Shown here piece by piece: positions 13,422 through 60,434 of a DNA stretch of 64,000 bases. The translations under genes were made by a program, and so were the position numbers. The stretch's first letter is position 1. Each line of letters starts with the position of its first letter. The notes below the pieces were generated by a model. That model saw only the letters and a list, made by a program, of their open reading frames with translations, ran no database searches and was not told the DNA's origin. The DNA comes from Amphiscolops sp. MND2022. Lineage: Eukaryota. The DNA is taken from contig OZ076409.1 in NCBI GenBank assembly GCA_964187785.1, positions 50,656,001 through 50,720,000 on the forward strand. Direction: 5' to 3'.

Positions 13422-14021
13422 TCAACAAAAGCACGTGTCATGAACGTTATGATTAGATATTCCACCCCTTTGGCGTACATCATGTCGTTCATTCCTGCAG
13501 TTAGTCCTAGCGTTCGAGTTGCGCTGTTCTTCGGCATCCGTTTCCGGTCTCTCAGCCGGGACTTCCCATCCTCTTCTAGTCTCATGGACCGATCCGGCCA
13601 TCATGGCGTTTTGAATTTGAGGCAACACTTGACTATTTATAGCCTCATTGATGGCCCTTTGGATCTGTGAACTAACATTATTAAGCATATCGTCCATCTC
13701 TCTCGAGATCCTAGAATTTAATTCGCTTGACAACCTGTTTATCTCTGCAAGTGAGTTTGCTTCAGCTGAGTTTTGGCCCAAGTCGGCGCTTGTCCTGGGT
13801 TCATTGTTCCTACAATTAGAATATAGGCTTTCGTCCTCATTCTCTTGGTTGTCGCTTACAACACTATTCCTCCTCCTAGCTGAATTACTATCTAAACTCC
13901 TTTCTCTTTCAATCCCGTTAAAGTGATTGTTTCCTAGCATTATATCTAGGTTTTCAATATCCGAAAGGATCTCTAATCCTCTAGACTTTCTAGTCTTCTT
14001 CTGCTTTCTCGTTGTAGGCAT
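13422..14021 (-). CDS. Copy of Gag N-terminal 195 aa carried in the 3' LTR, ending in flanking DNA
   Basis: Identical to residues 1-195 of ORF 26806..28515, followed by TCFC* from host flank. Expression unknown. Confidence 0.5.
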   Translation of the reverse strand: MPTTRKQKKTRKSRGLEILSDIENLDIMLGNNHFNGIERERSLDSNSARRRNSVVSDNQENEDESLYSNCRNNEPRTSADLGQNSAEANSLAEINRLSSELNSRISREMDDMLNNVSSQIQRAINEAINSQVLPQIQNAMMAGSVHETRRGWEVPAERPETDAEEQRNSNARTNCRNERHDVRQRGGISNHNVHDTCFC

Positions 14022-15360
14022 TGAGACTAAACCGGGTTGAAGAATTAAATTAATCAGGTCCGGAAAACAGTAATTGTTAACAGATTGTTATCAAGTTGAT
14101 TGTGAGGAGCTTTTCGAAATTGTGTCTACTCAAAGGAAGTAGCTCCTATATATACTCCCTTGGGTGGGAAAAGCATGGTAGTAACTTTAAAAAATGTCAT
14201 AACTACATTCCTAAAGCACCTGATCAGATCATATACATTCAAACATCAAAGTGCCGCTGAATTGTAGTAGCAAGGTCACGCGGCCGTTTAAATTCCTGCT
14301 TTGATAGGATTGAGAGGCATTCAAATAGCACGCGTTACTTCAAACAACATCTACTATAATATTTGCACTGCTGGTATTTGGGGAATGTCAGCTATCCCGT
14401 GCCGGCACGTGCCCCAGTAGTAAGCTAAACAAACTTACATCAAATAACGTTACATGCATAATACATCTACAAATTGCATGTGTTAATTGACAAATGAGAC
14501 CGGACTGGTCTTTCGGGCAAGTATTTGAAGCACCAACACACAACTGGTGTTAATCATATCAACCGATCTGGAGGACTACATAACTGTTTGTAACACACTC
14601 ATTACTGTACATGTCATTTAGAATGCACAAAACAATCATATTGACCATCTGAGTAATAAATTGAATGGGTGGCCTAAATCGGCCATTATCCGGATAGGTA
14701 TAGCATCAGGGGAGGGAAATTAGGCAAATGGCCTTATTTGGCTAAGCATCAGGGGAAATGAAACAAAACACTAATTATCCAACGTGATCATTTAACAAAC
14801 ACAGAAACGTAATTAAGCTACTTATTAATACAGTATAGCAGCGTCCACATCATTATCTTTTCATTAGCAACTTATGGCCGAAACCGGCCGTTTGACTCAA
14901 GTCCCGTTTAACAAAGGCGGAATTCAGTCATGTGGCCTTAACCGGCCATTAATTAAATACAGCACAAGTATTGTTCAAATGGATGAATGTGATTGGTTAG
15001 CACGACTGCAGTAAGTTATATCGCCGAGAAGGGACGTTTTCGCACTTGAACACGTTTCCTTCTCGCGATTAACTTGCTCTCTTATTGTTTGCTATAGCAT
15101 CAATACAACTTCGCAATTTAATTCAGCTATTACAACAACGAACTGATTTGGCTAATCCCAAATCGTAATATTAACAGACTAATTTGAACATCCAATATAA
15201 GTGATCAAATAAAATAAATACAAACAAAATACATGATGTAAACGGTTTCTAAAGTTTTAGCAGTTTTATTCTTAAAAAGTTGGCAGTGTTCCGGGTATGA
15301 CTTCTTGGTTGTTGCTTGTTGTCGTAATCATAGTGCCGTCACAGGCGGCAGCCTGCGACA
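13436..15360 (-). repeat. 3' LTR (1925 bp)
   Basis: Direct repeat of 27930..29854. No differences seen in spot checks, and ORF-track translations in the two copies match. Confidence 0.96.
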
Positions 15361-16057
15361 CTGCGGGTGTAAGGAAAAGAAACGAACCTGCATTCAACCC
15401 GTTTTCGTAGGCTTCCCTTCTCAGCTTTGTTATGAATTCTGGCTCATCTCTCGGTGTAGATCTGTCCATGTACCAATCCACTCGCTGTTTCTTGATCGCA
15501 TCTACTGAGCGGCCACAGACCATACATCCGGTATAACGTGTTTCGCTCACATTCTCGTACGGCTTCGTGTTTTGAATGTGATATGACGCCCTGAATGCAG
15601 AGTCAGCTACTACTAGCGGGGTATCCATAGACGGTCCTCTCTCGTGAGGGGGCGGTGATAGAGGTGACTCCACGACAGGAAGTAGAGTTTTGCAGAGCTC
15701 TATCCGAGATTTCCCTATCTTCCTCGGGGGAGCATAACACATTTCTCTATCAAAATATTTGTGATCCAACTTCGGGGTCACGCCCATCTGCGTCTGCCTG
15801 GAACTTGGGCCAGCTTCTGTATCTTCTTCTTCTTCTTCGGGTAATTCTACAGTCATAATGCGGCCCCCTATTAGCATGGGGCTGGATATTACCTCTTTCT
15901 CGATCCTGGCCACCAGTTGTTCCGTATCAGTGGAATAGTCGGTTTCCCAATCCGAGGCTTCGCTCTCACTACTAGATATGTAGATGACAGATTCGTTAGA
16001 TTCGTCAGAATCATAATCCATGTCGAATAATTTCCTTGCCAGGTTGTACTTGCTCAT
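15272..16057 (-). CDS. Accessory sense ORF of unknown function (261 aa) overlapping the 3' LTR
   Basis: ATG start, acidic/Ser-rich N-terminus, CMVC motif. Last 89 nt lie in the LTR. AATAAA directly after the stop (15265..15270). C-terminal peptide conserved in the diverged LTR at 63368. Confidence 0.75.
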   Translation of the reverse strand: MSKYNLARKLFDMDYDSDESNESVIYISSSESEASDWETDYSTDTEQLVARIEKEVISSPMLIGGRIMTVELPEEEEEDTEAGPSSRQTQMGVTPKLDHKYFDREMCYAPPRKIGKSRIELCKTLLPVVESPLSPPPHERGPSMDTPLVVADSAFRASYHIQNTKPYENVSETRYTGCMVCGRSVDAIKKQRVDWYMDRSTPRDEPEFITKLRREAYENGLNAGSFLFLTPAVSQAAACDGTMITTTSNNQEVIPGTLPTF

Positions 16058-17133
16058 AATGAGTTTTTTAGCTATTTTGAAGCTTGGGGAGGCAACTAGT
16101 CAGAATCAAAGCTTGAGAAAGAATGAATTCAACAAATTTGAGAATTTAGCCGACTCGGGCCTTTTCCCGACAATTCGTTTTTGGCGGTTGAATCTTCGGT
16201 AAATTACCCTAATCCGACATAAACATTCCTGAATGGAATTTCATAATTAGTCGGCCACCTTTGATATACCGATGTTTACCCGTCATCAACACCATCAGCT
16301 TAAGAGGTGTGAACGACGCTTGAGCTGCTAGCCTCAATTCTCTCCATCTCAAGTGGGTAATTAACGGGTCGCTTGAAGGCTATTAACGACACGCGCCGTT
16401 AAATTCTTTCAACATGGCTTCAGCCAATCAGAGTTAAGCTCTGATAAAATGAAAAATTAAGTAATAAAATGGCGAAAATAATAAATCAAAATAATTCAAA
16501 ATGGCGGAAATAACAATTTGAGTAACTATAATAACGGAAGTCCTAATTAGGCTAACAAACAAAACGGAACGAGGTAATACAGTGAAATGGGGTAAACGGC
16601 CGTAATTGGCCAATAATTCCATGAGTTGTAAATAATGAAATGATCTTAGTACATTTCGCTGGCAGACTCCATGTACAGAATAAATATGTAAATAATCCCA
16701 TAATATTAGTCTGGTAATAATCTTCAGCCACGAACTCCAATCCTTCAATTCTTTATTTTGAATTCCAATTCAATTCCTTTTATTTTAATTGCACTTTCTC
16801 TTCCATATTCATTCGATCGGTCTCCATCTACAAACTACCCTTTCTGTCTCTAATCTCTCCCGTCAGTCATCTCTTCCGAGTATCCCTGTTTCTCCCTTTA
16901 AGCTGGGTCCGGCCAATTTCCTTCGCGGCAGCAACCCGATTGGAACACTTCCCTTTTAGTCTCAGCTCAGAATGTCTTCAACTGAAGGTTGGTTTGTTTC
17001 TTTTTGAACTCAAATTTAACTTGATCAGGGCTAAATTCGTTCACAAAATGCTTCCTGTTTTCATCAATAAACGTGTGATAACACGTTTCGTTCAAATTTT
17101 CAAACACTTCCGGAAGTTTTCTAATGCGGTAAA

Positions 17134-20100
17134 ATGGATTTTTTCCAAGGAAGCTCACCGCCAAATTTCATCTCATTCTGTTTAGAAAACCAGAATAATG
17201 ACGAATCACAGATTCGAAACACCACTTCTTCAAACAATCTTGCCGAAGTTCCTCAACGCCCGCTCCCGATTACCATGCCAAGGCCTAGATCCGATCTAAT
17301 TGCTCCGTCTTCTCTACCTTCATCCAACATCCTTGCTATGTCAACAGCAGCGGTAACAGGAGGAGCCCAAGATACAGCCACTCCCTCTCCTTTCAGTGTC
17401 GACAGTGATTTTGATGTCACGGCGTACGCTGATGAGAAAGTTTTGCTTCTCGAACGGGCCCAGGGACAGGAAGAGAGACAAATTGCCAAAAGTTCTGAAC
17501 TCGGGGAACAGGAGGTTGAAGAGAGTGTCCCAGAAGGTTCACTCACGGTTGGGAACGAAATCCGATCTTCTACCTTGCCCTTCCAAACAAGCACTCCAAC
17601 CAAAGATTTGCCCAGTGAGTCTGCAAGGCTGGATTTATCGCAACTAGAAGCCGGTCTCACAGTTGCTCCATCTACCCAGACGGAATTGCCAGAATTGTTG
17701 ACAACTCGCGGAAATACTACCAACATGTCAGCAGCATCATTCCTCCACCATGAGACTGACGAAAGTTCGTCTATATGTGATGCCCCCAAATTGCCGACTG
17801 GAGTCGCGGACATAGTATATTTAGACGACATAACAGGGACTGAGGAAGCTGGTGACACATCCAGTCAGGCAAGTGGACCAGCTCTATACAGTTTCCAACC
17901 AGTGGGAGGCGCAGCAGAAACTGCAGGGGAGTCATCAGTTGACACTCCTATTCCTCATCCGGATAACTTGCGTCCGTCAACATCAACGTCTGCAGAGCAA
18001 GGTTCTGGCATCAGGGAGCTCTCTGGTCGCAGCCGGGCTATTTTAAAACAATACTTCGATCAGGATGCTACTACCATCAACTTCCCCCTTGGCCATAGAA
18101 CGGTGGCTTTCACTGAGCCGCAAGTGTACCATCTTTTGAGGGTCCTTACAGATGAAACCTTGAAGATGTCTTTCACTGCCATGGAACAGATGGTGATCGG
18201 GGCAGTTCGTGGAGCGCCGGTTACTTCCAGTTCTCGAACTGGTCATTTCCGAAACAGGCCAAGAGCCCAAACTCCCGGACCTGGACTTCATAGTGATTCC
18301 GAGGGCAGTTCGCATTCTGAAAATTTCCCTGAGTCAGGAACTGATACGTCTGCCGGGTCAAGTTCGGAACAAGAAGATAGAGGACTGGACTCTTCCAACA
18401 ACACTGATAGCTCTGGGGAGATGGCTCTAATTTCACAGGCTTTTAAGGAGCCTTTCAGACCTGCTTCAACTTCCTGTGGGACTACTCAAGATGATCCCCC
18501 TCAAGCAGGTTTCGAATCAGCAGATCAGTCTAGTCTTGATGCTACCCTTTCCGAGTTACGAACTCAAACTTCTCCTGCTCCGCCCTTAGCTTCGAGTTCG
18601 GGTAAAGCGCCAAAACGTAAGCAACGGAAACAGACTCGAGGTGTCCCTATGAAAGAGGAGTTCTTCTCTAAAATCGGATGGACACGCTCGTTCATTTCTG
18701 GACCAGCAGACCCGCTCCATAATCCTTATATGGTATGGTGCCATATATGTAAAAAGAATCTTTCTGTGAAGACGAAGGGCACTTTGGAAATTCTGCGGCA
18801 CCACAGGACGGAGAAGCACCCCCGAAAAGATCAAAGATGGCGTTACGAGCACCTCAAGAGTGTTCACCCCGTGTCCGGAAAGGTGCAACATCGAGTGAGA
18901 GGCCGCAATGGGAAGATTCTCTCAGAGATTGAGTTGGCCAAGGAGATGCGCCACTTTATGCACGTTGAGTTGGTGGACATCGGAGAACGTTTCCCTTTCT
19001 ATGACGATTTCATAAAAGGAACAACCACCACACTCGTCACCCCTGAATCAAGAGCTAAGACACAGATCCAACTTATTGGGAACTTCATACAGCAGCACGG
19101 GGATATTGGAATGCTCCGCAAATTGTGGTCCCAAATAGGCTCTTTGACTAACTATCAGTCCAGCTACTGTGACTTCGATTGGGGTGAAGAAAGAATTTCG
19201 GTAAGTTCTCTATTGGGTTTGTACACTGCTTGTGGTAGGCCAAAACCTTCCAAACATTTCGTAATTCTCCTTTTCCTTTTCAGGCCATCTTCCAGCACAT
19301 CTTCAATTGTGCAATGAACGATTTAGCAAACCAGATTGCTACCACACAGCACTTTGCCATCGAATTTGAGGATCAGGGTGTGAACAGACTCATGTCTGTC
19401 AAATTCTGGAAAGACAACACCCTCTGCCGAGTCTACGTGTGTCGAAGTGGGCTTCCTTCCTCTGACCTTACTGGAGAGTTGGGGTCCCTCTCTCGACTCC
19501 TCTCAGTAGTATCCACTAAAGCCGATATAGTCGCCTGTTCCGGATGTCCTGTCGAGCTGATTCAGACTATCGACAACAATGTTTTCTTCCCCCGGGCTGT
19601 CCAGAGTTGCTTTCGCTTCGAGCATCTGCAGCTCCAGAAGATGATGCACAAGCCCACTTTCAGTGTGTTTGGCAGAATAGACTTCTTCTCTGTTCTGAAG
19701 TGCCTCGTAGTTTCACTTGGAGCAGCTTCCAGTGAGGATTGGGCCCTGCAATCCCCTGAACTGGCACGAGTTAGTATATTAAGTTCAAACATGAAGCGTA
19801 AAGGGTTAGGGGGTAGGTTCGGGCAAAAGACAATTCGGGTTCATTTAGGCTATCGATACCTGCAAACTGGACTTGCCGAGTTTACCCAACCTCTGTCGGG
19901 AACTTGTAAAACATTGGAAGGCGATCCGGCAGTACCTGACGTCCCATACTCCACACCAGGGAATGCAGGGGGTCCACAATCAAGTGCAGAGCTTCGAGTG
20001 GTCTCTCATCTGCGACTCCTTCTTCACCGTCAAGTTGGAGTTCTTCCAACGCATAATCAGTGATTGTGAGTATACCGCTACATATCCATATTGGTACTAT

Positions 20101-21378
20101 AAGACATTATCAGAATGATCCTTGATCCTTGATTCCTCGGGCCACTAGCGCAGTAGGCATATCGGTATGGGTTTATGTAGACGTTTTGTTCTTTTCATGG
20201 TCTTGTCCTTTGTATTTCCAGATGTCGCCAGTTTCGTTGTCAATCTGTTGGGCCGACGAGATGCAACATTTTTCCTCTGTGGAGAAGTCTGCCGATTCAT
20301 CTCCAAGTTATGTGCCAGATGTTACTTGCCGGAAACCATCCCTCTCGAGAATTCGTGGTTCCTGCTCCTCAATTTCAACGTGAGCGACGGGAAGTTCATC
20401 AGCGAGGAGGAGTTCCTTGTCCGACACCGGCTGACAACTCGGATAGCTACTGCCAGCAAACAGTGTGCCGATGTTGTCCATTTGAACAAGAAATCGGAGA
20501 AAGCCGCCATTGAGAAGACAGCTGCAGAGACAACCAGCAGTTTCGTCAAAGAAGGACTGCAGTTTATTCAGTACTTGGTCAAGCAGGTCCTCAACCAAGC
20601 CGGTCTGAGCTCCGAGGTGATCAAGGGGTTGGCCGCCTTTGATCCTTCCGTCCTCTTCAAGAGGCCGAGTGAGGTCGGACTTCGTCATTTCGAGGTATTG
20701 TACTCGACCTTCCAGCTTCGCTCCTGGGTCTCCGGTGAGAATGAGAACATCTGTCGAGATGAGTATTTGGCTTTGTTAGATCACCTGCGAGTCAATTATC
20801 CTCCAGATTTCGATTTCAATGAAAATTCCCCCGACCTGATAGACTTTCTGATGCAACTCGAGTTTTTTCAAACTCATGAGCACATTTTCCATCTTTTCAA
20901 GCTGTGCTGCTTGTGTTTGACAGAACGAAGTCTCCAATATCCCCCAGTATCTTTCGGGAGTGTTAACACTTCTGGACACCGAGGCCGTTTTGCTGACCTT
21001 ATAGAGCCCTGTCAGAGTTACCTTTCTTGCGTGCCTGACTCCATTCTACATTGTTGTTCTGACGCTAATTTAGAAAAGCTTTCAGCCCTCAGTTCTTCCT
21101 TCGAGCGTTCCGCTTTCTCCCCCGACTATGATCCATGGACCTTTGTGGATGAGTTCGGGAGGTCCAAAATTTACAAGAGCCTTCTTGCCTCCTATAAGGT
21201 CGTCACTGCTGTTTCTCCCCCTCGGGCTGTTCATCTGGCGACAGGAATTGCCTCCTCCGTGCCGGACGATTCTGCCGTAAAGGTGCCCTCCAAGAAGCAA
21301 AGGAAGCGAGCAGGTAGCAGCAGTTCTACAATTTCGTCCACTTCCAAGAAGGCTGTTCAAGGGTCCTCTAAAGACTAA
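17134..21378 (+). CDS. Antisense four-exon accessory gene (~1308 aa): disordered N-terminus, BED/hAT-type zinc finger, decayed hAT-transposase-like region
   Basis: Exons 17134..19200, 19284..19769, 19849..20065, 20222..21378. Introns GTAAGT..TTTTCAG, GTTAGT..CATTTAG and GTGAGT..TTTCCAG (phases 0, 0, 1) join four ORFs into one 3927-nt frame. Motif VWCHICKKNLSVKTKGTLEILRHHRTEKH. Confidence 0.85.
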
Positions 21379-21610
21379 ATGTACATATGTATTTATGTAC
21401 TTTCAGACTGTAAACTTTGTTCATTTCTCTGTTTCATATTTATTTTCATTTTGTTCTCTGTTGTCTTGATTTTCTGATCCCGTATTTATTTCCTTGTAAG
21501 GGATCATTCAAATGTCCCATTATTTATTCAAGAAATACTGCTGCATGGGACCGAAAAGATAAAAAGAATGAAAAGAAGAGAATTCCCATTTTCGGGAAGA
21601 AATTCAATTC

Positions 21611-24600
21611 TTAGTATCTGAAGTCTTCTGAGTAGTTTGGATTTGGATTAGGCCTGAGATTATATTTCCCTCCTCTAGGGCTCAGACTTTCATTTCTAGC
21701 ATCTTTTTCAGATATTTCGGGCACGATAATATAATCCCCTCTTTTCGGAGAATTTTGTGCATCGTTGTCATTCGATGAATTTCTTTCTGGAGAATTTTCA
21801 TTCCCGTTTGGTCCATTTGCCATATCCGGCAAAGATTTTTCTTGGGTTTTTGGGGAAACGGCCGGATTCGGCCAATCAAATTCTTCGTTTCTAATAGCTC
21901 CAGTAGCTTCATTTCTTTTAGTGACGTCATCATTTAAGCGGTCATTCCGGCTGTGTGCCGTATTGTCATTATTCGTTTCTCGCGTGATTATATAATCCGC
22001 GTCACTCTCGTTTGCGTCATTGTTGATTTGTTCCGTACTCGGCTGTTCGCCGTTCGGTGAGTTGGCCGGAATAGGCTCGCTGCCTCGTGTGTCTATCTGT
22101 TCACCAAAGTTTGTTTCCCACGTTATTACATACAAGTCGTCTTGCGGAATGATTATTTCGTCATCCGGCTGTAGACGCTGTTCTCGGAAATTGTCCTCAA
22201 GTGGCTGATTTGGAACAAACTTTTTGAGACGAATTCGATGCAATATCTGCGTTTTATTTGTATTAAGCCTGCGGACAATGTAATTCTCGTTAGGTAAGGT
22301 CTTCTGGACTATAAATGGTCCAACCCAACGATAATCTTTGAATGGAATTTTTGATCCTTGATGATCCGCTTTCGGCTGTAATACAAAACAGTAATCGCCC
22401 TCTTTGAGTGGGGCGGCTTTTGCTTTTCGGTCATAATACTCCTTATATTTGATATATGACTGCATGATGTTCTGCTTAGTTTTGTCAATAAGGAGTTTTG
22501 TCCGGTTTTGGATTTCTTCTGCGAATTCAGTAGTCGGATGGATTTGCTCGTTTGGATTTGTTCCAAGCTTATGATCCAAGATGTTGTATGGGATTCTTCC
22601 ATGGAACACTCTTGTCGGTTCACATCCGATACTGGCATGGTAACTAGTATTGTGATTCAGAACTGCTAATGGCAAATATTTGTGCCATTGTCGGCGATAT
22701 TCTCCACATGCCATTTTCAAGTTTGTTTTCAATGAGGCATGTGTGCGCTCCAATTTCCCGATAGTTTGCGGGTGCTTTGTCGTTGCACATTTTAGGGTGA
22801 TTCCTAAAATTTGGGTAATTTCTGCAATAATCGTGGAAGTGAAGGCAGTTCCTTTGTCTGTAATGAGCGTTGTCGGTAAGTAGGAATGTTTGGTCATAAT
22901 GTCAATGAGTGCTTTGGCTACATTGATCGCTGATGCGTCCGTGAGAGGGTAAGCGAATAAATATCTAGAGAAAACATCAATTGCCGTTAGGACATTTTCA
23001 TACCCTCCGCTTGGGGGAAGATTCGGCAATAGGTCAATTTGCATGGCGTCTTCAGGTCCAAGGTCCCATTCGGGCAAATTTAGTAGTTCAGGCGTGATCG
23101 TTGCATTAGGGACTCTTTTGTCTCTGGCGCATTGCTCACACCCTTCTACCCACTTTTTGACATGTTTTGCCATGTTGGGATAATAATACCTTTGTCTGAT
23201 TTCCTGCAACATTTTTGAAATCCCGGGATGTTTATGCGCTGTCCCGTGAAGGGAGTGGAGCAGTTCCCGAAGTAGGTGTTGCGGGAGCAAAATTTGATGG
23301 TATTTAACATTCCCTGTTTCATCAAAATATTGCCGTGTTAGGATTTCGTCCTTTAGTACAATTCGTTCCAGATTATTTGCATAGTGTCTATATCGAGCGT
23401 CCTGTTGCAGTATGTTTTCTGAGTAGTCTTCGTGAAGGAGTTTTGCCTTCAATTGTTGTAATACTGCATCCTTGGATTGCTCGATAATTATCTGGTTTGT
23501 TTTCCTCAATCGGTCTTGTATTTCAGGTTGTTGTTTGGTTAAGTTGGTGGAAAGAGTTTGTATTGTAACTGTAGGGTCTTCGATTACAGGATTGTTCCTG
23601 ATTGCTTCTTTCCTCGCCCAATATTGTTCTTCGGTCTCGTCGTCGTCATTGGTGTAGAAGATTTGTTCTTCCTGTGAGACTCCTGCTGATTGGACGTTTA
23701 TTTCTATTGGTAGCGTTTGTACATCTTCTCGGATTTTCATTACTAATTTGTCCTTTGGGTCTGCTTCCAGTCGGGACAAGTAATCCGCTGCCGTATTCTG
23801 TGCTCCTGGGATGTGTGCAATGACAAAATTGAACTGAATTACATAGTCGCATGCGTTCCACAGAGCTGGGGGTACGATTTTCGTCTGAAAGAATCTCGTT
23901 ACGGCTTTGTTGTCGGTTAGAATTATGACCGGTTTCGGTGCTCCCCAAAAAATATGCCCAAATTCTTTGAATGCGAAATAAATCGCACGAAATTCTTTTG
24001 CATAAATTGACATTTTTATCTGGGCTGGGGTGAAGGTTTTTGAACCATAAGCGACCGGTGCATATGATTTGCGGATTGACGTGAATTTCTGACTCGGATC
24101 ATCTTCAATGAGTACTGCGTATCCTGCAGCTCCAAAGCTTGCATCTGTCATGAGTGCAATCTGCTTGTTGGGAATGGGTTGTTGTAAGGCTAAGTCGCAA
24201 CATTTGTCCAGAGCTCGGTTGATTTCCTCAAATTGCTGTACCAATTCTTTTGATACTAGGACTTTTTCGTCACTTTTCAGCATCTTGTAGAATGGGGCAA
24301 GGCGTTCGGACAGTCTTGGAACGTAGTTTCGGTAGTAGTTCAGGAAACCCAAATATCTTTGCAATGCCTTTTTCGACTTTGGAAATTTGGTTTTTTCTAG
24401 AAAATTCTGAACGTTCTGTCGTTGAGGTTTGACGCCTTGTGGAGTAATCGTTCGTCCAAGGAAATCAATTTCACGGGCACCAAAATGACACTTGTGCATC
24501 GTCAATTTAAGGCCTGCTTTCTGAATGCATTTGAAAGTTGCTCTTAGGTTAGCAATGAGATGGTCGGCGTCGTTGGCGGCGATGCCGATATCGTCCACAT

Positions 24601-26815
24601 ACTGGGCGCACTGATCCGCTTTGATGACTTTGTCGAGGTATTCCCTCATGAAACTCGAGAATGCGGATAGTGACCGGCTAAGGCCTTGTGCCAAGCGTCT
24701 GTAGGCGAATGTGCGACTGGCAAAATTGAAAGCCAACATTTCGATTGAGCGTTGGTCGGCCATTGGTAGGCAGTGGTATGCCTGCGAACAGTCTAATTTG
24801 CAGAACAGTTTTTTGCCTGCCAGGTGTTGGGCAGCATCAACTAGTGTGCTGACAGGATGATTATTGTTTATATAATCATCAGAAATCAGGTTGTTGATTT
24901 TTCTCAGGTCGACTAAAAGTCGCAGTTTCCCATTTGGTTTCTTTTGGGCGAATATTGGGCTTGCATACTTTGAGAACGGTAGAGTGGTGATGATGCCATA
25001 TTTGTGTAACATGGCTAATTCGACGAGGATGTCCTCCTTTAGATTGATAGGAGCTGGGAGACTTTGACTATAGGCTGGGGAATCGTCCTTAGGCGTCAGT
25101 TTCACCTTAAATTCCTCATTCATGCCTATATCGAATCGGTGTCTTGCGAAGATATCGTGGAATTCCACTAACAGTTCCTCTATTTTCTCCTTCTCTTCAG
25201 GAGTAAGGGTGGAATCTTTCCAATCGAAGTTTTCCAAGAATTTTGCACGTGATTCTTCATCTTTGGTGGGGTCGAGTGTCTCCAGTTCCTGTAAGGCCTG
25301 TAATTCTCGGAGGATTCGTTTCTGTATCGGTGTGTGTTCCTCAGGGTTTCCAGGATTTTCTGGAGTTGGGAACCAATAGTTTTCAGAATCTTGTAGATTT
25401 TTGTTGGTCTTGATGAGACTGCTGACGTAATGGGCCGCCTGCTCTTGGTCGTTTTGCAAAAGATGCCAGGTTGATGCCGGGTCTACCGGTTTAACATGTT
25501 TCATTTGTTCTGGCGTCATGACTGAGAAATTGGCAATATGGAGTCCCTTTTTGAGTTTGTAAGGGTGGTCTGTGAAATTGTTCACTGGTATCAATATATT
25601 GCCCTCATTCAGAGTGACCAAAGCTGGGCAAAATGTGATGTCGCCTTCTTCGTGTAGGAGGTCGCTCGGTTGCAAGATTCCGGTGACAGCATTCTCAGGG
25701 TACAACAGGGAATTGGTCCTAATTAGGACTTTATCATTTGGCGGAATGGTTATCTCGGTAGGGTTGAGAATTGGTTCTAACACGTTTGAGTATTTGTGAT
25801 CAGCTGTTTTGAGCTGCATTGAGAAGAACGGGAAATTCAGTATGCCTTGTCTCATGTCCAGAACTGTGTGGTTTCGTTGAAGGAACATTAGGCCGATAAT
25901 CGGACCTGTCAGGTGTTCCATGACTATAAAAATCTCATGAAACTCAATGTCGCCAACTTCAAATTTAAGTTCTATTGTGCTTTTGGGCGTTTCCAGTTGC
26001 CCATTAGCGACCATGATTTGGAAATTCGGAGGCGGACCTTCCCGGATAACAGATTGTGGAGATAAGAGTCGAATTTTCCGGAGGTCCATTTCTGGAATTG
26101 CACTGGACAATGCTCCAGTGTCAATGAGTCCATCTATGGTCAGCTCCCCAAAGTCCATGGGGAAGTACAACATGCGCTTCTTGCATTTGAGATTGATGTT
26201 GGTCGACAAGGGTATACAGTCTGGTTCACCGTCTCTGGTGATTAGGACGTTCTGGAATTGCTTCTCGTCTAATAGTGATTGTGGTGTAGGTTCGGAGTTG
26301 TCCTCATGGGCCTCGGTCCCCAATGGGTTCGGGAACACTGGGTGGTTCGTACCATCATTCATCTGCCAGTTTTCAACTAGTGCTCTGGTCTTTTTATTGT
26401 GGGTAATTGGAGGGTTCTCATGGACTGTTCTATTGTAGTGCTCGATGTCATCTAGGACATATTGGAATTGTAGTAGTTCCTGGTTGTAGATCTCTGTGTC
26501 CCAATAGGGATCTCTGCCGTAATCTGGATCTATGTAGGTAGGATTGTAATTGTCAACCAGGGGAATGGGCCTGAATCGGCTATTGAAAGCAGATGTATAG
26601 TCAGGGTCCCATACAGGAATTGGTTTTTGGAACAAATGAGTGTTATTGTATGTAATGATGGTAGCTTTTTCCATTTGTTGCTGCCAGACAACAGAGGGAT
26701 AGCCCATCAATTGTTGATTGTATTGGTGGAAAGTTTGCGTTGGAGGGTCCGATCTGATGTATTGTCGGACAGATATCAGTTCGTTGTATTGGAGTCGTGG
26801 CGAAGTTAGTTTTTT
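21611..26815 (-). CDS. pol: Pol polyprotein: protease, dUTPase-like segment, RT, RNase H, integrase
   Basis: LIDTGA (protease); QYVDD (RT); TDAS..E..TDN..ADYLSR (RNase H); H-H-CEQC zinc finger; IDL / TDKG / LER (DDE); VGPF motif. Frame is open up to 26818 and overlaps the end of gag in the -1 frame. Confidence 0.96.
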   Translation of the reverse strand, partial: KKLTSPRLQYNELISVRQYIRSDPPTQTFHQYNQQLMGYPSVVWQQQMEKATIITYNNTHLFQKPIPVWDPDYTSAFNSRFRPIPLVDNYNPTYIDPDYGRDPYWDTEIYNQELLQFQYVLDDIEHYNRTVHENPPITHNKKTRALVENWQMNDGTNHPVFPNPLGTEAHEDNSEPTPQSLLDEKQFQNVLITRDGEPDCIPLSTNINLKCKKRMLYFPMDFGELTIDGLIDTGALSSAIPEMDLRKIRLLSPQSVIREGPPPNFQIMVANGQLETPKSTIELKFEVGDIEFHEIFIVMEHLTGPIIGLMFLQRNHTVLDMRQGILNFPFFSMQLKTADHKYSNVLEPILNPTEITIPPNDKVLIRTNSLLYPENAVTGILQPSDLLHEEGDITFCPALVTLNEGNILIPVNNFTDHPYKLKKGLHIANFSVMTPEQMKHVKPVDPASTWHLLQNDQEQAAHYVSSLIKTNKNLQDSENYWFPTPENPGNPEEHTPIQKRILRELQALQELETLDPTKDEESRAKFLENFDWKDSTLTPEEKEKIEELLVEFHDIFARHRFDIGMNEEFKVKLTPKDDSPAYSQSLPAPINLKEDILVELAMLHKYGIITTLPFSKYASPIFAQKKPNGKLRLLVDLRKINNLISDDYINNNHPVSTLVDAAQHLAGKKLFCKLDCSQAYHCLPMADQRSIEMLAFNFASRTFAYRRLAQGLSRSLSAFSSFMREYLDKVIKADQCAQYVDDIGIAANDADHLIANLRATFKCIQKAGLKLTMHKCHFGAREIDFLGRTITPQGVKPQRQNVQNFLEKTKFPKSKKALQRYLGFLNYYRNYVPRLSERLAPFYKMLKSDEKVLVSKELVQQFEEINRALDKCCDLALQQPIPNKQIALMTDASFGAAGYAVLIEDDPSQKFTSIRKSYAPVAYGSKTFTPAQIKMSIYAKEFRAIYFAFKEFGHIFWGAPKPVIILTDNKAVTRFFQTKIVPPALWNACDYVIQFNFVIAHIPGAQNTAADYLSRLEADPKDKLVMKIREDVQTLPIEINVQSAGVSQEEQIFYTNDDDETEEQYWARKEAIRNNPVIEDPTVTIQTLSTNLTKQQPEIQDRLRKTNQIIIEQSKDAVLQQLKAKLLHEDYSENILQQDARYRHYANNLERIVLKDEILTRQYFDETGNVKYHQILLPQHLLRELLHSLHGTAHKHPGISKMLQEIRQRYYYPNMAKHVKKWVEGCEQCARDKRVPNATITPELLNLPEWDLGPEDAMQIDLLPNLPPSGGYENVLTAIDVFSRYLFAYPLTDASAINVAKALIDIMTKHSYLPTTLITDKGTAFTSTIIAEITQILGITLKCATTKHPQTIGKLERTHASLKTNLKMACGEYRRQWHKYLPLAVLNHNTSYHASIGCEPTRVFHGRIPYNILDHKLGTNPNEQIHPTTEFAEEIQNRTKLLIDKTKQNIMQSYIKYKEYYDRKAKAAPLKEGDYCFVLQPKADHQGSKIPFKDYRWVGPFIVQKTLPNENYIVRRLNTNKTQILHRIRLKKFVPNQPLEDNFREQRLQPDDEIIIPQDDLYVITWETNFGEQIDTRGSEPIPANSPNGEQPSTEQINNDANESDADYIITRETNNDNTAHSRNDRLNDDVTKRNEATGAIRNEEFDWPNPAVSPKTQEKSLPDMANGPNGNENSPERNSSNDNDAQNSPKRGDYIIVPEISEKDARNESLSPRGGKYNLRPNPNPNYSEDFRY

Positions 26816-28515
26816 GACTCATCGTTGGAAGATGAGGCCTGTGAGTTGGAAGATGTTGACTTATGTTGTGGTTTCTGCGCTTTTGAATTGGGTTTTCCGT
26901 CATTAGCGTCGTCTGGTCTGGTGCGTTTGGGTTTGAGATGCGCACCAGCGCCTTGCCAGCATCTTTCTTCCGGGTGGTTCTTTTTACCACAAGTGCCACA
27001 CTCCGGATACGTCTTTTTCTGAGTCTGTTTGCCTTGTTGGGCATCTTTTTCCTTTTTCTTCTTCAACTTTTCGCAGTCCTTGACCATATGGCCCTTTTCC
27101 TTGCAATAGTTGCAGGTTATATCTGACATTTGCCCAGTAGTTAGAGGAGTCTTGGATTTTGTCGAGGAGGTCATTGTGGCCATTGGTAGGTCGTCTGATT
27201 CCTCTAGTGCATTGAGTTCTAATTCTCTCTCCAAATGAGCAACTATTTCGTCATAAGAGCCATTTTCGAGTCTGGCCATGTTGACAGACCGCTTCAGTTT
27301 TGGTGGCAGCTTTGCGTAGAGCAAGCTGTCAATCATTTTCTGGGCGTGATCCCCAAATGCTTTTTCTGCCCCTTGATTTAGTTCTTCAAGGAAATCTGGT
27401 AATTTCATCGTATTGGGATCAAAGACCAGGCGGTGCCATTTATGCTTGGCAGTCGCCTGTGATTCGGGCTTGACGTATTTTCGTCTGAAGATGATTAATA
27501 CGTCTTCTAAAGTTTGTCTGTTGCTGGAGCTGATGTTTCTGAAGGTTTGAAGAGCATTCTTTCTCAATAAAGAGTGGAAGTGATTGATCTTCATTTGCTC
27601 AGTCATCTCTGGCTGCATCTTGATCATCGTATGGAACAGGTCCTCAAACAGCTCGAATTTTTCACTCTTGCCATCAAAAGTCATTGTGTTTGAGTTGACC
27701 GGGCGTATAGTGAGTTGTTGGGCTGTCGGCCTATTCTGCATCGTTGTCAAGACGTCTGCCAATCGAGTAATAGGGTCGGTTTGGGCAGCCGGAGCATTTC
27801 TCTCTTGCGCTGGGATCGTCGTGTCAAGGTTGATGTCCTCATAGGACCTGTCGAGATGGTTTCTGGATGAGACTCGTCCCGTGAGAAACTCGGGAACTTG
27901 AGGTGGAGATTCGTTGTCTCCTGTCACCATGTCATGAACGTTATGATTAGATATTCCACCCCTTTGGCGTACATCATGTCGTTCATTCCTGCAGTTAGTC
28001 CTAGCGTTCGAGTTGCGCTGTTCTTCGGCATCCGTTTCCGGTCTCTCAGCCGGGACTTCCCATCCTCTTCTAGTCTCATGGACCGATCCGGCCATCATGG
28101 CGTTTTGAATTTGAGGCAACACTTGACTATTTATAGCCTCATTGATGGCCCTTTGGATCTGTGAACTAACATTATTAAGCATATCGTCCATCTCTCTCGA
28201 GATCCTAGAATTTAATTCGCTTGACAACCTGTTTATCTCTGCAAGTGAGTTTGCTTCAGCTGAGTTTTGGCCCAAGTCGGCGCTTGTCCTGGGTTCATTG
28301 TTCCTACAATTAGAATATAGGCTTTCGTCCTCATTCTCTTGGTTGTCGCTTACAACACTATTCCTCCTCCTAGCTGAATTACTATCTAAACTCCTTTCTC
28401 TTTCAATCCCGTTAAAGTGATTGTTTCCTAGCATTATATCTAGGTTTTCAATATCCGAAAGGATCTCTAATCCTCTAGACTTTCTAGTCTTCTTCTGCTT
28501 TCTCGTTGTAGGCAT
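26806..28515 (-). CDS. gag: Gag (569 aa) with two CCHC zinc knuckles, starting inside the 5' LTR
   Basis: CNYCKEKGHMVKDC and CGTCGKKNHPEERC. Capsid-like FDGKSEKFELFEDLF region. Confidence 0.93.
   Translation of the reverse strand: MPTTRKQKKTRKSRGLEILSDIENLDIMLGNNHFNGIERERSLDSNSARRRNSVVSDNQENEDESLYSNCRNNEPRTSADLGQNSAEANSLAEINRLSSELNSRISREMDDMLNNVSSQIQRAINEAINSQVLPQIQNAMMAGSVHETRRGWEVPAERPETDAEEQRNSNARTNCRNERHDVRQRGGISNHNVHDMVTGDNESPPQVPEFLTGRVSSRNHLDRSYEDINLDTTIPAQERNAPAAQTDPITRLADVLTTMQNRPTAQQLTIRPVNSNTMTFDGKSEKFELFEDLFHTMIKMQPEMTEQMKINHFHSLLRKNALQTFRNISSSNRQTLEDVLIIFRRKYVKPESQATAKHKWHRLVFDPNTMKLPDFLEELNQGAEKAFGDHAQKMIDSLLYAKLPPKLKRSVNMARLENGSYDEIVAHLERELELNALEESDDLPMATMTSSTKSKTPLTTGQMSDITCNYCKEKGHMVKDCEKLKKKKEKDAQQGKQTQKKTYPECGTCGKKNHPEERCWQGAGAHLKPKRTRPDDANDGKPNSKAQKPQHKSTSSNSQASSSNDESKN
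26809..26815 (-). promoter_or_regulatory. -1 ribosomal frameshift slippery heptamer A_AAA_AAC
   Basis: Minus strand reads TCA AAA AAC TAA at the gag stop. The pol frame GTC AAA AAA CTA is -1 relative to gag. Confidence 0.85.
27912..27929 (-). promoter_or_regulatory. Primer-binding site, tRNA identity uncertain
   Basis: TGGTGACAGGAGACAACG directly after the LTR-terminal CA. Confidence 0.7.
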
Positions 28516-29854
28516 TGAGACTAAACCGGGTTGAAGAATTAAATTAATCAGGTCCGGAAAACAGTAATTGTTAACAGATTGTTATCAAGTTGATTGTGAG
28601 GAGCTTTTCGAAATTGTGTCTACTCAAAGGAAGTAGCTCCTATATATACTCCCTTGGGTGGGAAAAGCATGGTAGTAACTTTAAAAAATGTCATAACTAC
28701 ATTCCTAAAGCACCTGATCAGATCATATACATTCAAACATCAAAGTGCCGCTGAATTGTAGTAGCAAGGTCACGCGGCCGTTTAAATTCCTGCTTTGATA
28801 GGATTGAGAGGCATTCAAATAGCACGCGTTACTTCAAACAACATCTACTATAATATTTGCACTGCTGGTATTTGGGGAATGTCAGCTATCCCGTGCCGGC
28901 ACGTGCCCCAGTAGTAAGCTAAACAAACTTACATCAAATAACGTTACATGCATAATACATCTACAAATTGCATGTGTTAATTGACAAATGAGACCGGACT
29001 GGTCTTTCGGGCAAGTATTTGAAGCACCAACACACAACTGGTGTTAATCATATCAACCGATCTGGAGGACTACATAACTGTTTGTAACACACTCATTACT
29101 GTACATGTCATTTAGAATGCACAAAACAATCATATTGACCATCTGAGTAATAAATTGAATGGGTGGCCTAAATCGGCCATTATCCGGATAGGTATAGCAT
29201 CAGGGGAGGGAAATTAGGCAAATGGCCTTATTTGGCTAAGCATCAGGGGAAATGAAACAAAACACTAATTATCCAACGTGATCATTTAACAAACACAGAA
29301 ACGTAATTAAGCTACTTATTAATACAGTATAGCAGCGTCCACATCATTATCTTTTCATTAGCAACTTATGGCCGAAACCGGCCGTTTGACTCAAGTCCCG
29401 TTTAACAAAGGCGGAATTCAGTCATGTGGCCTTAACCGGCCATTAATTAAATACAGCACAAGTATTGTTCAAATGGATGAATGTGATTGGTTAGCACGAC
29501 TGCAGTAAGTTATATCGCCGAGAAGGGACGTTTTCGCACTTGAACACGTTTCCTTCTCGCGATTAACTTGCTCTCTTATTGTTTGCTATAGCATCAATAC
29601 AACTTCGCAATTTAATTCAGCTATTACAACAACGAACTGATTTGGCTAATCCCAAATCGTAATATTAACAGACTAATTTGAACATCCAATATAAGTGATC
29701 AAATAAAATAAATACAAACAAAATACATGATGTAAACGGTTTCTAAAGTTTTAGCAGTTTTATTCTTAAAAAGTTGGCAGTGTTCCGGGTATGACTTCTT
29801 GGTTGTTGCTTGTTGTCGTAATCATAGTGCCGTCACAGGCGGCAGCCTGCGACA
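27930..29854 (-). repeat. 5' LTR (1925 bp)
   Basis: Minus strand reads TGTCGCAGG...CATGACA and is followed by the PBS. Confidence 0.96.
28641..28648 (-). promoter_or_regulatory. Putative LTR TATA box
   Basis: GGGAG-TATATATA-GGAG about 125 nt upstream of the gag ATG. Confidence 0.5.
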
Positions 29855-30915
29855 GCACGGTACATCCGAATTTTGGACGTTGACTCCGAAGTGATTTGCA
29901 TTATACTACGGAAGAAGCTGCAGCTTCTTGCTGACGATCGAAATTATTCACGACGATCGAAATTATTACGACGATCGAAATTATTACGACACATACGAAT
30001 TTCGTCATTATATCCGAAGTAAAATTCGGATTTTATTTATGTCTGCAAATTGGGGGAGACCAAATGGTCCCCACTTTAAGATTTTTCCTCAGTATGCGAC
30101 GTTTTTCAAACGATTATTTAATCAAAGTGCCCCTTTTGATTTTTAGGAGGAATAAAGCATTATGTGAGAATAGAGGGCCACGTTCGGTTTTTTCGGCACA
30201 ATGAGACTAACCGAAGATCTAAAAAAAGTTGGTGGAAAAATTTTCCCAATTTCTGGTTTTTGAGTAAAACACTTTCGAAGTTCAAAGAGCGGCTTCATTG
30301 ATTAGTTTCCGGTCCTGTGGAACGGACGAAAGTTTTCGGAGAAATTGTGGAAATGATTTACGGTATTTTACGGCTCTGTGAGATTTTCCTTCAAAATATA
30401 TTCATTCGGTCGAAGTTAAATGTTTTCGGCTCGAAAAAAAAAACGTTTTGCGAGCTTGAAGTTCCAAATTTGGCACAATAAGATTTTTTTCTAGGAAAAA
30501 ACGTTCCGAAAAAAATAAGTACCAGAAAAAGTTTTTTTTTGTTGTTTCCATTGGAGAAAAAGTAAAGTGGTTTTCGAGTTTTATGCGTATTCCTTCGGGT
30601 ATTTTACGGCACTGAGAAAGTGATAAACTTATAACAATGGTGTCCTTTGCATTTTTAAGAAACTTGGTTTTTGGAATTTTGAGCGGGGCCCGGCTTCTTT
30701 GTTCAAATCGCAACAGAGGAATTGTATTAAATGCAATTAGCTGAAAGTCTTATCCATGAGCAAGTCCCATGGTCATTGAACAAGACGAGATGAAATACTG
30801 AACTTCGGGACGTGATAATTTGGTCGGTAGCGTGAACGCCAGTGGTATAATGGGTATGCTGATCGAGGCCCAACTGGCCACTGTTTTTGCTTGTTTTCAT
30901 TCACATTCAAGTATT

Positions 30916-45017: not shown

Positions 45018-46554
45018 TCATAAATCATTTGATACTACGCATTAAATATTCGGACCGGGATAGATTTCCAAAAGCATTTGCATGTTTACATATTGAACAT
45101 TCCTTTCCTTTGAAATAATTGTAACACTTTCGAAGTAACTGAATATTTACCTTGAGCATTTATTTAGCAGTTTCTGAGCTTCCAAACTAAAATGCTCATT
45201 AACATGTTCCCTTCGTGTTTCTTTGAATTAACAAACATCCCAGTGGCGCTACAAATGTTTTCTAAATTCAACATCTTGAATTTTGTTTTCCAATATTATA
45301 TGTGCAATTCTCAGGTATGACGTAACAATCATAAAGCAATCACATTGGAGATTTCTTATATTGCATGCTTTCTGCACTTTCATACCTCTTGTCTTTTATG
45401 GGATTGAAAAACATTGTCGCAATTATATTCAACGCTTGGATTGTTGTGCTTGCTTCTCGGCTATTTTTGATTATTTAGATGATACTAAAACCATAGCATC
45501 TGACCAATTTTAGAGGTTTTATATTAATTTTGCATGACAGAAACTATTCTCAGTGGAATTTTGAAAGGTTAGGAATCTTGTAGGTAAATTATTGACATTC
45601 AAGCAACAAAAGTGAAACATTTTTTGACCTTGATGAAACTAACCAACTTTTATGAAAAGGGAAAACACAGTTGCAACACGTATATGATCAAAATTTCGAG
45701 AAGAGAATCCGATAACTCTGTTGTCAGAAATCTTGACGCCAAAATTTTGTCGTGTTTTCTAAAATTAACAGCTTCCAATCAATAGATACAACTCTATCTT
45801 AATAACAACAAGCTTCAATTTGACACCTCCATCAAGTCCAGAATCAAATGTGTCAATTTTTTGTCCTGTGTTGCAAGTTGGTATTTAATTGTGTACGTTC
45901 GAGCATTAAGAATACGTCGTTGCTAACATAGTTCTGGCGGAAATACCCGCTACTCAGCCAGAGACTTGTTGAGAGATTTTTCTGCTAGGACCATGATTGT
46001 GAAAAATGGGGGGTTAGCGTTTTCATGATTTTCTTTGTGTCCTGGGAGAAAAATTTTCTGACAACTTGACAGACTCACAACTGAATTAAAAGTTTCCCTG
46101 TCAGAGGGTACCGTTATATCTAGACTAATAACAAAAAATGTCTTTCAGAATGATTTTTACGCAAGCAATCCTCCAGTTATCCGACAAACTTTAACAACTA
46201 CGTATTAACGTGATAACTACATGTGATAACTGCCATATATAACGTGTGATAATGCTTCTTAGGAAGGCGACTGGTTTCAAACAGAACTCCAAAAAGAAAA
46301 GTGAAAATGATTGATTAGCATTCAAATGAAATTTCGCATTTGAAAATTGAGTAATGAGCGGAACCTTCAAACACAAGTAGTCTCCGTGACAACCTTAATT
46401 ATTCCATTTTCTCACTTTTAAAAAAAAAACCCAATATACACTATGGTACCAAAAAGCTAAGTACAGCTGAATTTTTTGAATTTTTTTCAAGTCAAAAAAA
46501 AATGAAAACATTTGTGAACAATTTCAATCAGTTACCGGAAGTTGTGCTTCGAAA

Positions 46555-48461
46555 ATGGTTAAACCGCTTGATTCATTTTTGGTTTGCAAAATTGTTACTC
46601 TTCGCGAGATTGGGTTATCTTACAATCAAATCAAAGAGAAATTGGGTTTGAAGTCACGATCAACAGCACAGTCAGCTTACAAGCGCTTTTTGAAAACCAG
46701 TTCTTATTCTCCAAAAAAACCACCAGGAAGACCGGAAAAACTTAGCAAAAAAGACAAAAGATTAATTATAAGAAGCGTCAAAAACGATCCCAAAACTACA
46801 TTACAAAGAATCAGGGTAAAGTATAATTCTTTTGCAACCTCAAAAAGTGTCTCAAGATCTACAATTCGGCGAGTTCTGAAGAAGTATGGGCTAGTTTCTA
46901 GAGTGGCGGCTAAAAAATTTCAGCTCAATAAAAAACAACGAACAACGAGGAAAAAATGGTGCTTGCGAATGTCCAAGAAGCCGCTCGGTTTTTTGTCCAG
47001 CCTTGCACTCACTGAAAAAAGTACATAGTAAAAAATTTTCAATTTTGGGAAGGAAAATCATACACAGAGTCATACACAGAGTCCGCAAATAGACGAAAAT
47101 TTTCAGCAAAAAAATCGGAAATTTTCGAAAAAAATCTTAAAGTTTCGGAATTTTCCTAATTTTTTTATCGCAACACCAAACGGCCCCTCCTACAAACTTT
47201 TCGGCACTGTGAGACAATTTTTTCTCAACACCAAAGGGTCTCCCTTCGAAATTTTTCGGCACTGTGAGACAAAAAAATCAAAAATTTAGAAAAAAAATCG
47301 AAATTTTCGAAAAAAATCTTCGAAATTTTCCCAATTTTTTTCACAACATTTCACAATAAGAATGCATTCTTTTATTTTTGAAACCTTCCAATTACGGCCT
47401 TGAACTGAAACAAAATCCATGCATGAATTTTGGAATTTTTTTCAAAATTTCGATTTTTCGAATATTTCATTTTTTTTGTTTCACAGGGCCGAAAAAAATT
47501 CACAGGGTGACCCTTTTCTTCTGTTTGCGAAATCGTCTAAAAACACGGGACAGCCCTGGGGTGGAACCCACAATCTTTGGTGTCAAAAGTGAGAATTCAA
47601 CCGGCTGCGCCAAATCTACTTGAATTCGAACAGTTAAAAGCGGCGACTAAAAAAAATAAATGTCATTGTAATAGTCGGGCACTTTTTGATATAAGCGCCG
47701 ACTAAGAACCGTAAACAATCGGGGAACAGCGTAAGTCGGTGACCTGCTTAAGCCTCAAATTTATCGACAAAGTGTTTCAATTTTTCTGACTTTTTCTTTT
47801 GTTTTTTATTATCGCAGATTTTTGTAGTACTCTACTTTTGCTATTCTTTTTCTCATGAAGTTTTACATAATAATCTTGGCTGGATGGAAAAGGATTCTGG
47901 GAAAATGTGGTTTTCACTGATGAAACTCGTGTGCGTCTGAACAGTGACGGTATTGTAAGAGTTTTCCGAGAAAAAGGATCGCGTTTCCACTCAAAAAATA
48001 TTCAAGGGCAGAACACTGATAAACGCTCGCTTATGTTCTGGGGAGCTATTCGATCGGATGGCAGGAAGATGCTAATTAGATGCCCGGCAACACTCAATAG
48101 CAGCGGCTATGTCGAAATTCTTGAAAAGTATGACAGAAATTTGCACCTACCGGACATTGTTTTCCAGCACGATAATGCCCCAATTCACAGAAGCAGAGAG
48201 GTTTCCAACTATCTAAGTGAAAAGAAGTGGGATGTGCTCGAATGGCCTCCGTATAGTCCTGATTTGAACCCCATGGAAAATATTTGGGCTATACTGAAGA
48301 AATCCCTGCAAGGACAAACTCTAACGTGGGAAAATTTGGAAGAAACAGTGATTGATATTTGGAACAATATCAGTCCCGAAATTATCCGAAATATGTACGC
48401 ATCTTATGAGAGTCGCCTCGTAAAAACTATAAAAAACGATGGAAATATGATTGGTTATTAG
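46555..48461 (+). CDS. Tc1 transposase (DD34E), 333 aa once insert 46988..47892 is removed
   Basis: 46555..46987 gives the HTH region (PGRPEKLS). 47893..48461 gives FTDE, QHDNAP and SPDLNPME, with 34 residues between D and E. The joined frame reads KPLGFWENVVFTDE. Confidence 0.85.
46988..47892. mobile_element. 905-bp insertion or intron in the Tc1 transposase
   Basis: Begins GT and ends AG. Short inverted ends TCCAGCC / GGCTGGA. Contains repeat-family motifs and a minus-strand tRNA-like A/B box segment at 47549..47613. Confidence 0.75.
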
Positions 48462-55013: not shown

Positions 55014-55028
55014 TGGCGCAGTCAGCCA
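55014..55028 (+). promoter_or_regulatory. Primer-binding site, probably tRNA-Ser
   Basis: TGGCGCAGTCAGCC directly after the 5' LTR. Confidence 0.7.
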
Positions 55029-55064
55029 ATTTTTAACAAAAAATTACAACGAACTTCCAACAAG

Positions 55065-60272: not shown

Positions 60273-60418
60273 AAATAAAAATGTTCATGTTGTTACAGGC
60301 TCAAATTGGATCTCTCGAAAGGGAACACCAGTGCCACAAACGACGCACAAACCAGCCGACTTCATGCCCGAGGACATAACCCCCCCAGGAACCTCAGCAA
60401 CAAACTAAAGAAAACCCG

Positions 60419-60434
60419 AAGAGAGAGGGGGAAA
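60419..60434 (+). promoter_or_regulatory. Polypurine tract
   Basis: AAGAGAGAGGGGGAAA abutting the 3' LTR. Confidence 0.9.

Follow-up and report, generated by a model that had tools for sequence, protein, structure and literature searches.

The window, the whole stretch of 64,000 nucleotides analysed here, contains an intact Ty3/gypsy-type element on the minus strand at 13436-29854 (16.4 kb), as delimited by self-comparison of its first 50 kb. The sole long repeat found in this comparison, 13436-15360/27930-29854, consists of two copies of 1925 bp that are 100% identical and form the 3' LTR (13436..15360, minus strand) and the 5' LTR (27930..29854, minus strand), with TG...CA ends. The target-site duplication GCACG is present at 29855..29859 on the 5' side of the element and at 13431..13435 on the 3' side. 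The identical LTRs, the TG...CA ends and GCACG on both flanks together point to a recent, intact insertion.

The gag ORF (26806..28515, minus strand) encodes 569 aa and, according to the ORF list, Pfam and the Atlas, includes a leader, a linker, a Ty3-type capsid and two zinc knuckles. Its core matches Ty3_capsid/Retrotrans_gag clusters of the Atlas at 0.93-0.95, while the zinc knuckle is under the Pfam cut-off but has nucleocapsid matches in PDB. The pol frame (21611..26818, minus strand) is in the -1 frame relative to gag, and the slippery heptamer A AAA AAC (26809..26815, minus strand), a candidate frameshift site, stands directly before the gag stop. Pfam domains in pol follow the order protease-RT-RNase H-integrase (226-314, 625-790, 859-985 and 1178-1349), which is the gypsy order, and the best of its 34 PDB matches is Ty3-G Gag-Pol (E 2e-47). 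Judged by its domains, the element is a Ty3/gypsy LTR retrotransposon (Metaviridae). Two other classes were tried and ruled out: Ty1/copia (Pseudoviridae), as integrase is not upstream of RT, and BEL/Pao (Belpaoviridae), as none of the 12 Pfam matches of pol is to a Pao-specific family, judged by the Pfam families that we take to be Pao-type. The only BEL/Pao-related trace is a match to DUF1759 in Gag, which is below the Pfam cut-off. A polypurine tract by the 3' LTR is typical of Ty3/gypsy elements and was not treated as defining. In the sequence of this element no such tract adjoins the 3' LTR, and the nearest purine run of at least 8 begins 62 nt upstream; the sense strand at 15361-15385, beside the 3' LTR, is pyrimidine-rich and ends with CAG, like a splice acceptor. 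Three AATAAA occur after the pol stop (21439-21528, minus strand), which might allow a shorter gag-pol mRNA or might be a by-product of an A-rich stretch.

The element also carries two further candidate coding regions. First, an extra sense ORF of 261 aa (15272..16057, minus strand) spans the boundary of the 3' LTR; its end is 89 nt within the LTR and is immediately followed by an AATAAA. It belongs to a cluster of 105 members, of which all 15 listed end inside the LTR, and it has no Pfam match. With this ORF at the 3' LTR and Gag at the 5' LTR, both LTR boundaries of the element would be translated. Second, an antisense gene in pieces separated by GT..AG intron-like gaps (17134..21378, plus strand) is arranged head-to-head with the 261-aa ORF and tail-to-tail with pol. 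Its first piece, with 727 aa, belongs to a 14-member cluster of 98-100% identity and possesses a Cys/His motif that we take to recall a BED finger; the gene has no notable Pfam match.

A second, conventional gypsy element (54810-60638, plus strand; LTRs at about 54810-55013 and 60435-60638) served as control. It has LTRs of ~204 bp with 98.5% identity, a TGTGT duplication, a normal polypurine tract and a single gag-pol frame of 1757 codons. The sequence CA|TGG is also present at 55013 of this element, and the resulting ATG is out of frame with the gag start at 55065.

Start of gag inside the 5' LTR

The gag ATG of the first element is at nt 1340 of the LTR, and 586 nt of the ORF lie inside the 5' LTR. 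This LTR-encoded leader of Gag (27930..28515, minus strand) comprises 195 codons and the first base of codon 196, and its frame is also open in relatives. Codon 196 (27928..27930, minus strand), which encodes Met, consists of the final base of the LTR together with the two initial bases of the putative primer-binding site (PBS; 27912..27929, minus strand). The PBS starts with TGG without a spacer and is translated as (M)VTGDN, so the junction GAC A|TG GTG ACA GGA reads D-M-V-T-G. The initial annotation had placed the gag start 586 nt within the 5' LTR, with 195 codons in the LTR, and this is borne out by the LTR boundaries and the ORF; the sequence equally agrees with its statement that the LTR end and the PBS are translated and form an in-frame ATG in a strong context. 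No tRNA genes to match the PBS were found in the 64-kb window. On the evidence of its sequence, the element has the LTR-start layout of gag in which LTR end and PBS are translated, as in Ty1. The leader frame extends over 217 codons from stop to LTR end, while the next longest of the six frames has 97, and relatives show this layout too; for these reasons we do not regard the open frame as a product of chance. Our preferred reading, to which we assign a probability of about 80%, is that the 195 LTR codons are a real N-terminal domain of Gag.

The TATA box claimed at 28641 corresponds to a TATA-like sequence, TATATATAG, which is present at 28648-28640 (28640..28648, minus strand) and is a candidate promoter element. 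A CA dinucleotide 31-32 nt downstream of it gives a predicted transcription start at ~28617 and a predicted 5' UTR of 102 nt (28516..28617, minus strand), which is free of ATG. All 33 ATGs of the LTR upstream of the gag start lie above the TATA-like box, the last at 28670, and 133 nt without ATG would have a chance of ~2.5% given the frequency of ATG in the upstream LTR. The start context of M1 is weak (T at -3, C at +4), whereas that of M196 is strong. In the preferred reading, RNA polymerase II would start ~30 nt below the TATA-like box, and ribosomes would scan the short AUG-free leader and initiate at 28515. Translation would then proceed across R/U5, the attachment site of the integrase and the PBS before reaching the capsid and nucleocapsid regions, and Gag-Pol would be produced by a -1 shift at the end of gag.

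From the TATA-like box to the LTR end, the sole canonical-type poly(A) hexamer is ATTAAA within codons 100-102 (28211..28216, minus strand), a candidate signal. AATAAA occurs once on the sense strand of the LTR, at LTR nt 91, and is followed by a U-rich tract. This textbook signal sits upstream of the TATA-like box, which makes any placing of the borders of U3, R and U5 tentative. The genomic RNA might instead start near the 5' end of the LTR, with a very short U3, polyadenylation at nt 91 and a long U5, and the TATA at 28648 would then serve as internal promoter of a distinct gag-pol mRNA; long Gag would still be made, but from RNA other than the packaged one. This arrangement, for which the AATAAA at nt 91 with its U-rich tract and the three more after the pol stop can be adduced, seems rather unlikely to us, since the signal at nt 91 comes directly after the stop of the 261-aa ORF and is explained as its terminator, no TATA-like motif is present near the LTR start, and in any model the full-length RNA passes several AATAAA.

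Leader and junction among relatives

A search with the leader (residues 1-215) gave 253 matches among 676 candidates, and the best 120 were listed. Among these and the query, the start MPTTRK is present in 114 of 121 proteins, D195 in all 121 and M196 in 120. Since this set had been chosen by the leader, a second search used only the Gag core (residues 245-530), and the best 120 of its 3200 matches were analysed. An M1-type Met start was found in 93 of these 120 core-selected clusters, with leaders of 195 aa (74 clusters), 189 aa (13) or 197 aa (6); another 25 start at a different Met and 2 at M196. The leader frame, whose closure in other copies the initial annotation had named as counting against its reading, is thus open with the same start Met in 93/120 clusters, a count of clusters of gene-caller proteins, which favours diverse leaders. 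Closed leaders collapse into fewer clusters. The two clusters starting at M196 hold 158 of the 1234 members, and the 15 listed members of one of them are mostly fragments. No relatives of Gag at the DNA level were found in viral or metagenome contigs. One metagenome contig (L001, 1-1136) contains a decayed pol fragment that is 80% identical to the RNase H region of the element and has no LTR.

The core-selected clusters have a mean pairwise identity of 96% over the core against 65% over the leader, where it is 91% for residues 1-30, 53% for 31-90, 79% for 91-150 and 46% for 151-192. In a neutral simulation at 60% identity, the frame stayed free of stops in 1.8% of 2000 runs; it was set against 8 leader groups that are 50-79% identical, with indels ignored and pairs that are not independent. 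Substitutions are conservative in block 1-30 (mean BLOSUM62 +0.75 vs -0.36 simulated) and in block 91-150 (+0.40 vs -0.27 simulated), while blocks 31-90 and 151-192 substitute as neutral sequence would. DNA-level constraint from R/U5 signals could add to the conservation of the former two. These data support the view that the leader codes for a conserved portion of Gag, with the LTR end and the PBS within the predicted reading frame.

We also considered a Gag that starts at M196 only, with a leader that is untranslated and open by chance or by DNA-level constraint in R/U5. The strong context of M196 and the neutral appearance of the variable blocks would fit this, as would the lack of a useful homologue of the leader in Pfam (no family of note), PDB sequences and the Atlas. 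Nevertheless, it is highly improbable in view of a frame open at 50-79% identity across 8 leader groups, where 1.8% is expected, a conserved start Met with conservative substitutions, and a second family with an unrelated leader of the same design (see below).

Short products in the clusters mark the position of the LTR end. The 15 listed members of the Gag cluster of the window include 8 of 569 aa and 7 of 197-215 aa, and the latter match up to ...VHD and then continue in unrelated sequence. A break at codon 195 is what would be expected of 3' or solo LTR copies. The 3' LTR of the element itself contains such a copy of the leader ORF (P0176, 199 aa; 13422..14021, minus strand), which runs 4 codons into host DNA. 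As the LTR ends with GAC-A, the residue after codon 195 must have a codon beginning with A, and this holds for 17/17 short products of the element's family, one of them from this window.

We further searched for more distant relatives among representatives and listed the best 150 of 2027 matches. Among these 150, Gags at 33-59% identity have leaders of 114-223 aa and retain the junction behind them. The motif M[VA]TG occurs in 29 of the 150, of which 8 begin there. In the other 21, which are not independent, the preceding residue is always D, H, N or Y (21/21; background 17%). These four residues have the NAC codons and are the ones that an LTR ending in ACA allows. The alternative open phase (H-G-D-R) is represented by 1/150 listed representatives, apparently a frameshifted copy.

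The family of P0247 is 42% identical and has a leader of 189 aa without detectable homology to that of the element (hhalign probability 0.8%). When this leader was searched against short proteins (<305 aa), 642 matches were obtained and 120 listed; 16 of the latter are unaligned at the junction by the rule used, 26 continue into the PBS and 78 enter unrelated sequence. The residue at the break has an A-first codon in 77 of these 78 (background 44%); two of the 78 may be decayed continuing copies. Judged from such breaks and junctions, at least two distant gypsy families have LTRs that encode ~190 residues of Gag, with a shared phase. No short products were found for 10 distant Gags in their clusters, each of which has 1-2 members. 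The distant Gags P0233, P0323 and P0260 contain in-frame tandem series of two or three motifs resembling the junction, which suggests duplicated LTR-end/PBS units within the ORF.

The initial annotation had also proposed two forms of Gag, with 569 and 374 aa. The first would start at M1 and the second at M196, through an internal transcript or ribosome entry, as a capsid-only or regulatory protein like p22 of Ty1. Several observations fit such a second start: M196 is kept in 120/121 listed proteins and has a strong context, unlike M1; 2/120 core-selected clusters and 8/29 representatives with M[VA]TG begin at an M196-type Met; and p22 of Ty1 arises from an internal RNA inside GAG, according to the available part of PMC4599808. 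However, a PBS abutting the terminal CA always spells ATG, so the conservation of M196 is no evidence for a second start. In the preferred reading, Met196 would be conserved since the CA of the LTR end and the TGG of the PBS are fixed, with the phase locked once they are inside an ORF. The second gypsy element of the window has an equal ATG that is out of frame with gag. Moreover, 16 AUGs (5 in-frame and 11 out-of-frame) precede M196 after M1, one AUG five bases upstream of M196 opens a frame of 3 codons, and an internal RNA from U5 is hypothetical. We thus find the short form unsupported and two purposeful isoforms quite unlikely.

Candidate role of the leader and known systems

The leader starts with a basic patch (28474..28515, minus strand), with 7 K/R in its first 15 residues and within the block (residues 1-30) that is 91% identical between relatives; 4-8 K/R were counted at this position in all eight long leaders examined. 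A central helix-prone segment was found, by a crude score, in most of these eight. In the element, AlphaFold2 predicts a long amphipathic helix at residues 83-142 (28090..28269, minus strand), which is confident over residues 91-130 (pLDDT 87-89). Modelling of residues 78-148 in three copies gave a parallel bundle that scored 0.77, compared with 0.02 for the best of 3 controls, on a mark calibrated for pairs, not three copies; contact agreement between runs was at least 95% and partner pLDDT at least 85. Of solved proteins, 21/30 same-chain pairs and 0/23 single chains reached this mark, and among eukaryotes 17/29 pairs (1/7 of those without an older solved relative) and 0/30 single chains did so. 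The model lends support to a predicted self-association of the leader helix. The AlphaFold2 model of whole Gag is poor (mean pLDDT 42), and a fold search with it gave nothing at E<=0.001. Taken with the basic tip, the helix model indicates that the leader is probably a matrix-like oligomerisation or targeting domain. Its basic tip, flexible linker and parallel self-associating helix would stand in for a matrix domain and aid multimerisation or localisation of Gag.

Among known systems, Cer1 (Caenorhabditis elegans, Ty3/gypsy) has a Gag with a predicted coiled coil at the same position as the leader helix here, and a role of this N-terminus in multimerisation or localisation has been proposed (PMC10309623). 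Unlike in the present element, Cer1 Gag starts outside the LTR, as its LTRs measure ~491 bp and the 5' UTR is said to include positions 957 and 1175.

The closest layout is that of Ty1 (Saccharomyces cerevisiae, Ty1/copia), which has the copia domain order, whereas the element here has the gypsy order. The LTR of Ty1 is 334 bp long. Its GAG starts after a 53-nt 5' UTR, and the PBS (RNA nt 95-104) is in the coding region, where PBS changes that preserve the Gag sequence have been described (PMC5454406, in the part available). Combining these numbers with the LTR length, about a dozen codons of Ty1 GAG are in the LTR versus 195 here, in line with the earlier remark that Ty1 gag starts in its LTR over a far shorter stretch. 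The triple use of one sequence as attachment site, PBS and protein, also proposed initially, holds as an overlap in this element, but it is not new in kind, since the PBS of Ty1 likewise lies inside GAG (PMC5454406, same part). What is unusual here is the size, and the presence in Ty3/gypsy families, of an arrangement otherwise known from Ty1.

The bat betaretroviruses MlERV-betaE and group VII also have ORFs that start in the LTR, but these ORFs, with 84-101 aa, end 3 or 26 nt short of the gag start and are unfused, whereas the leader here is fused (PMC3621094, in the portion available). Plant Retand, Grande and RIRE2 and fungal Boty, relevant only to a side observation, have the standard layout with PBS and gag in the internal region, as far as the available parts of their descriptions go. 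The accessible portions of PMC6431247, PMC4599808, PMC3601003, PMC9911081, PMC3095310, PMC5408684, PMC7472051, PMC5006619, PMC2996953 and PMC7264820 contain no such Gag layout. We found no precedent for a Ty3/gypsy element with a long (~190-codon) LTR-encoded N-terminus of Gag in the literature covered, which was mostly outside subscription journals, Repbase reports and supplements, where one may exist.

Textbooks and annotation tools take LTRs to be non-coding, yet in at least two distant gypsy families the LTR here encodes a third of Gag. A Gag read from the PBS onward would be mis-annotated in these families, and hundreds of short host 'genes' would be LTR copies (642 matches <305 aa for the P0247 leader). 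The families provide a natural series for asking how a region of replication signals turns protein-coding. They also raise the questions of how tRNA priming and translation across the PBS compete, and of whether Gag fragments produced from solo LTRs restrain the family to which they belong.

As R/U5 is copied as strong-stop DNA, each 3' and solo LTR would carry a copy of the leader domain. A bolder proposal is that a whole gypsy clade moved the oligomerisation domain of Gag into R/U5. Each 3' or solo LTR would then be a small gene (promoter, start codon and ~190 codons) for a capsid-less Gag N-terminus, which would join Gag via the helix and act as a copy-number-dependent brake. First-strand transfer between co-packaged RNAs would swap N-terminal domains between subfamilies, in frame since the phase of the junction is fixed. 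We regard this proposal as speculative and improbable. With regard to leader swaps at the PBS, 336 pairs have near-identical cores, and 95 of them differ by at least 25% in the leader. The change points fall at residues 190-249, but the core varies very little in any case. Distance correlations are 0.64-0.66 within the leader, modestly above the 0.45-0.54 across the junction.

Other repeats in the window

The window further contains a tandem array of ~82 copies of a 22-bp unit (51738-53536) and Tc1/mariner-like transposase remnants at 51-602 (DDE_3 match) and 46480-48461 (plus strand). A 510-bp direct repeat with 85% identity (31259-31770/35996-36512) possibly represents old LTRs.
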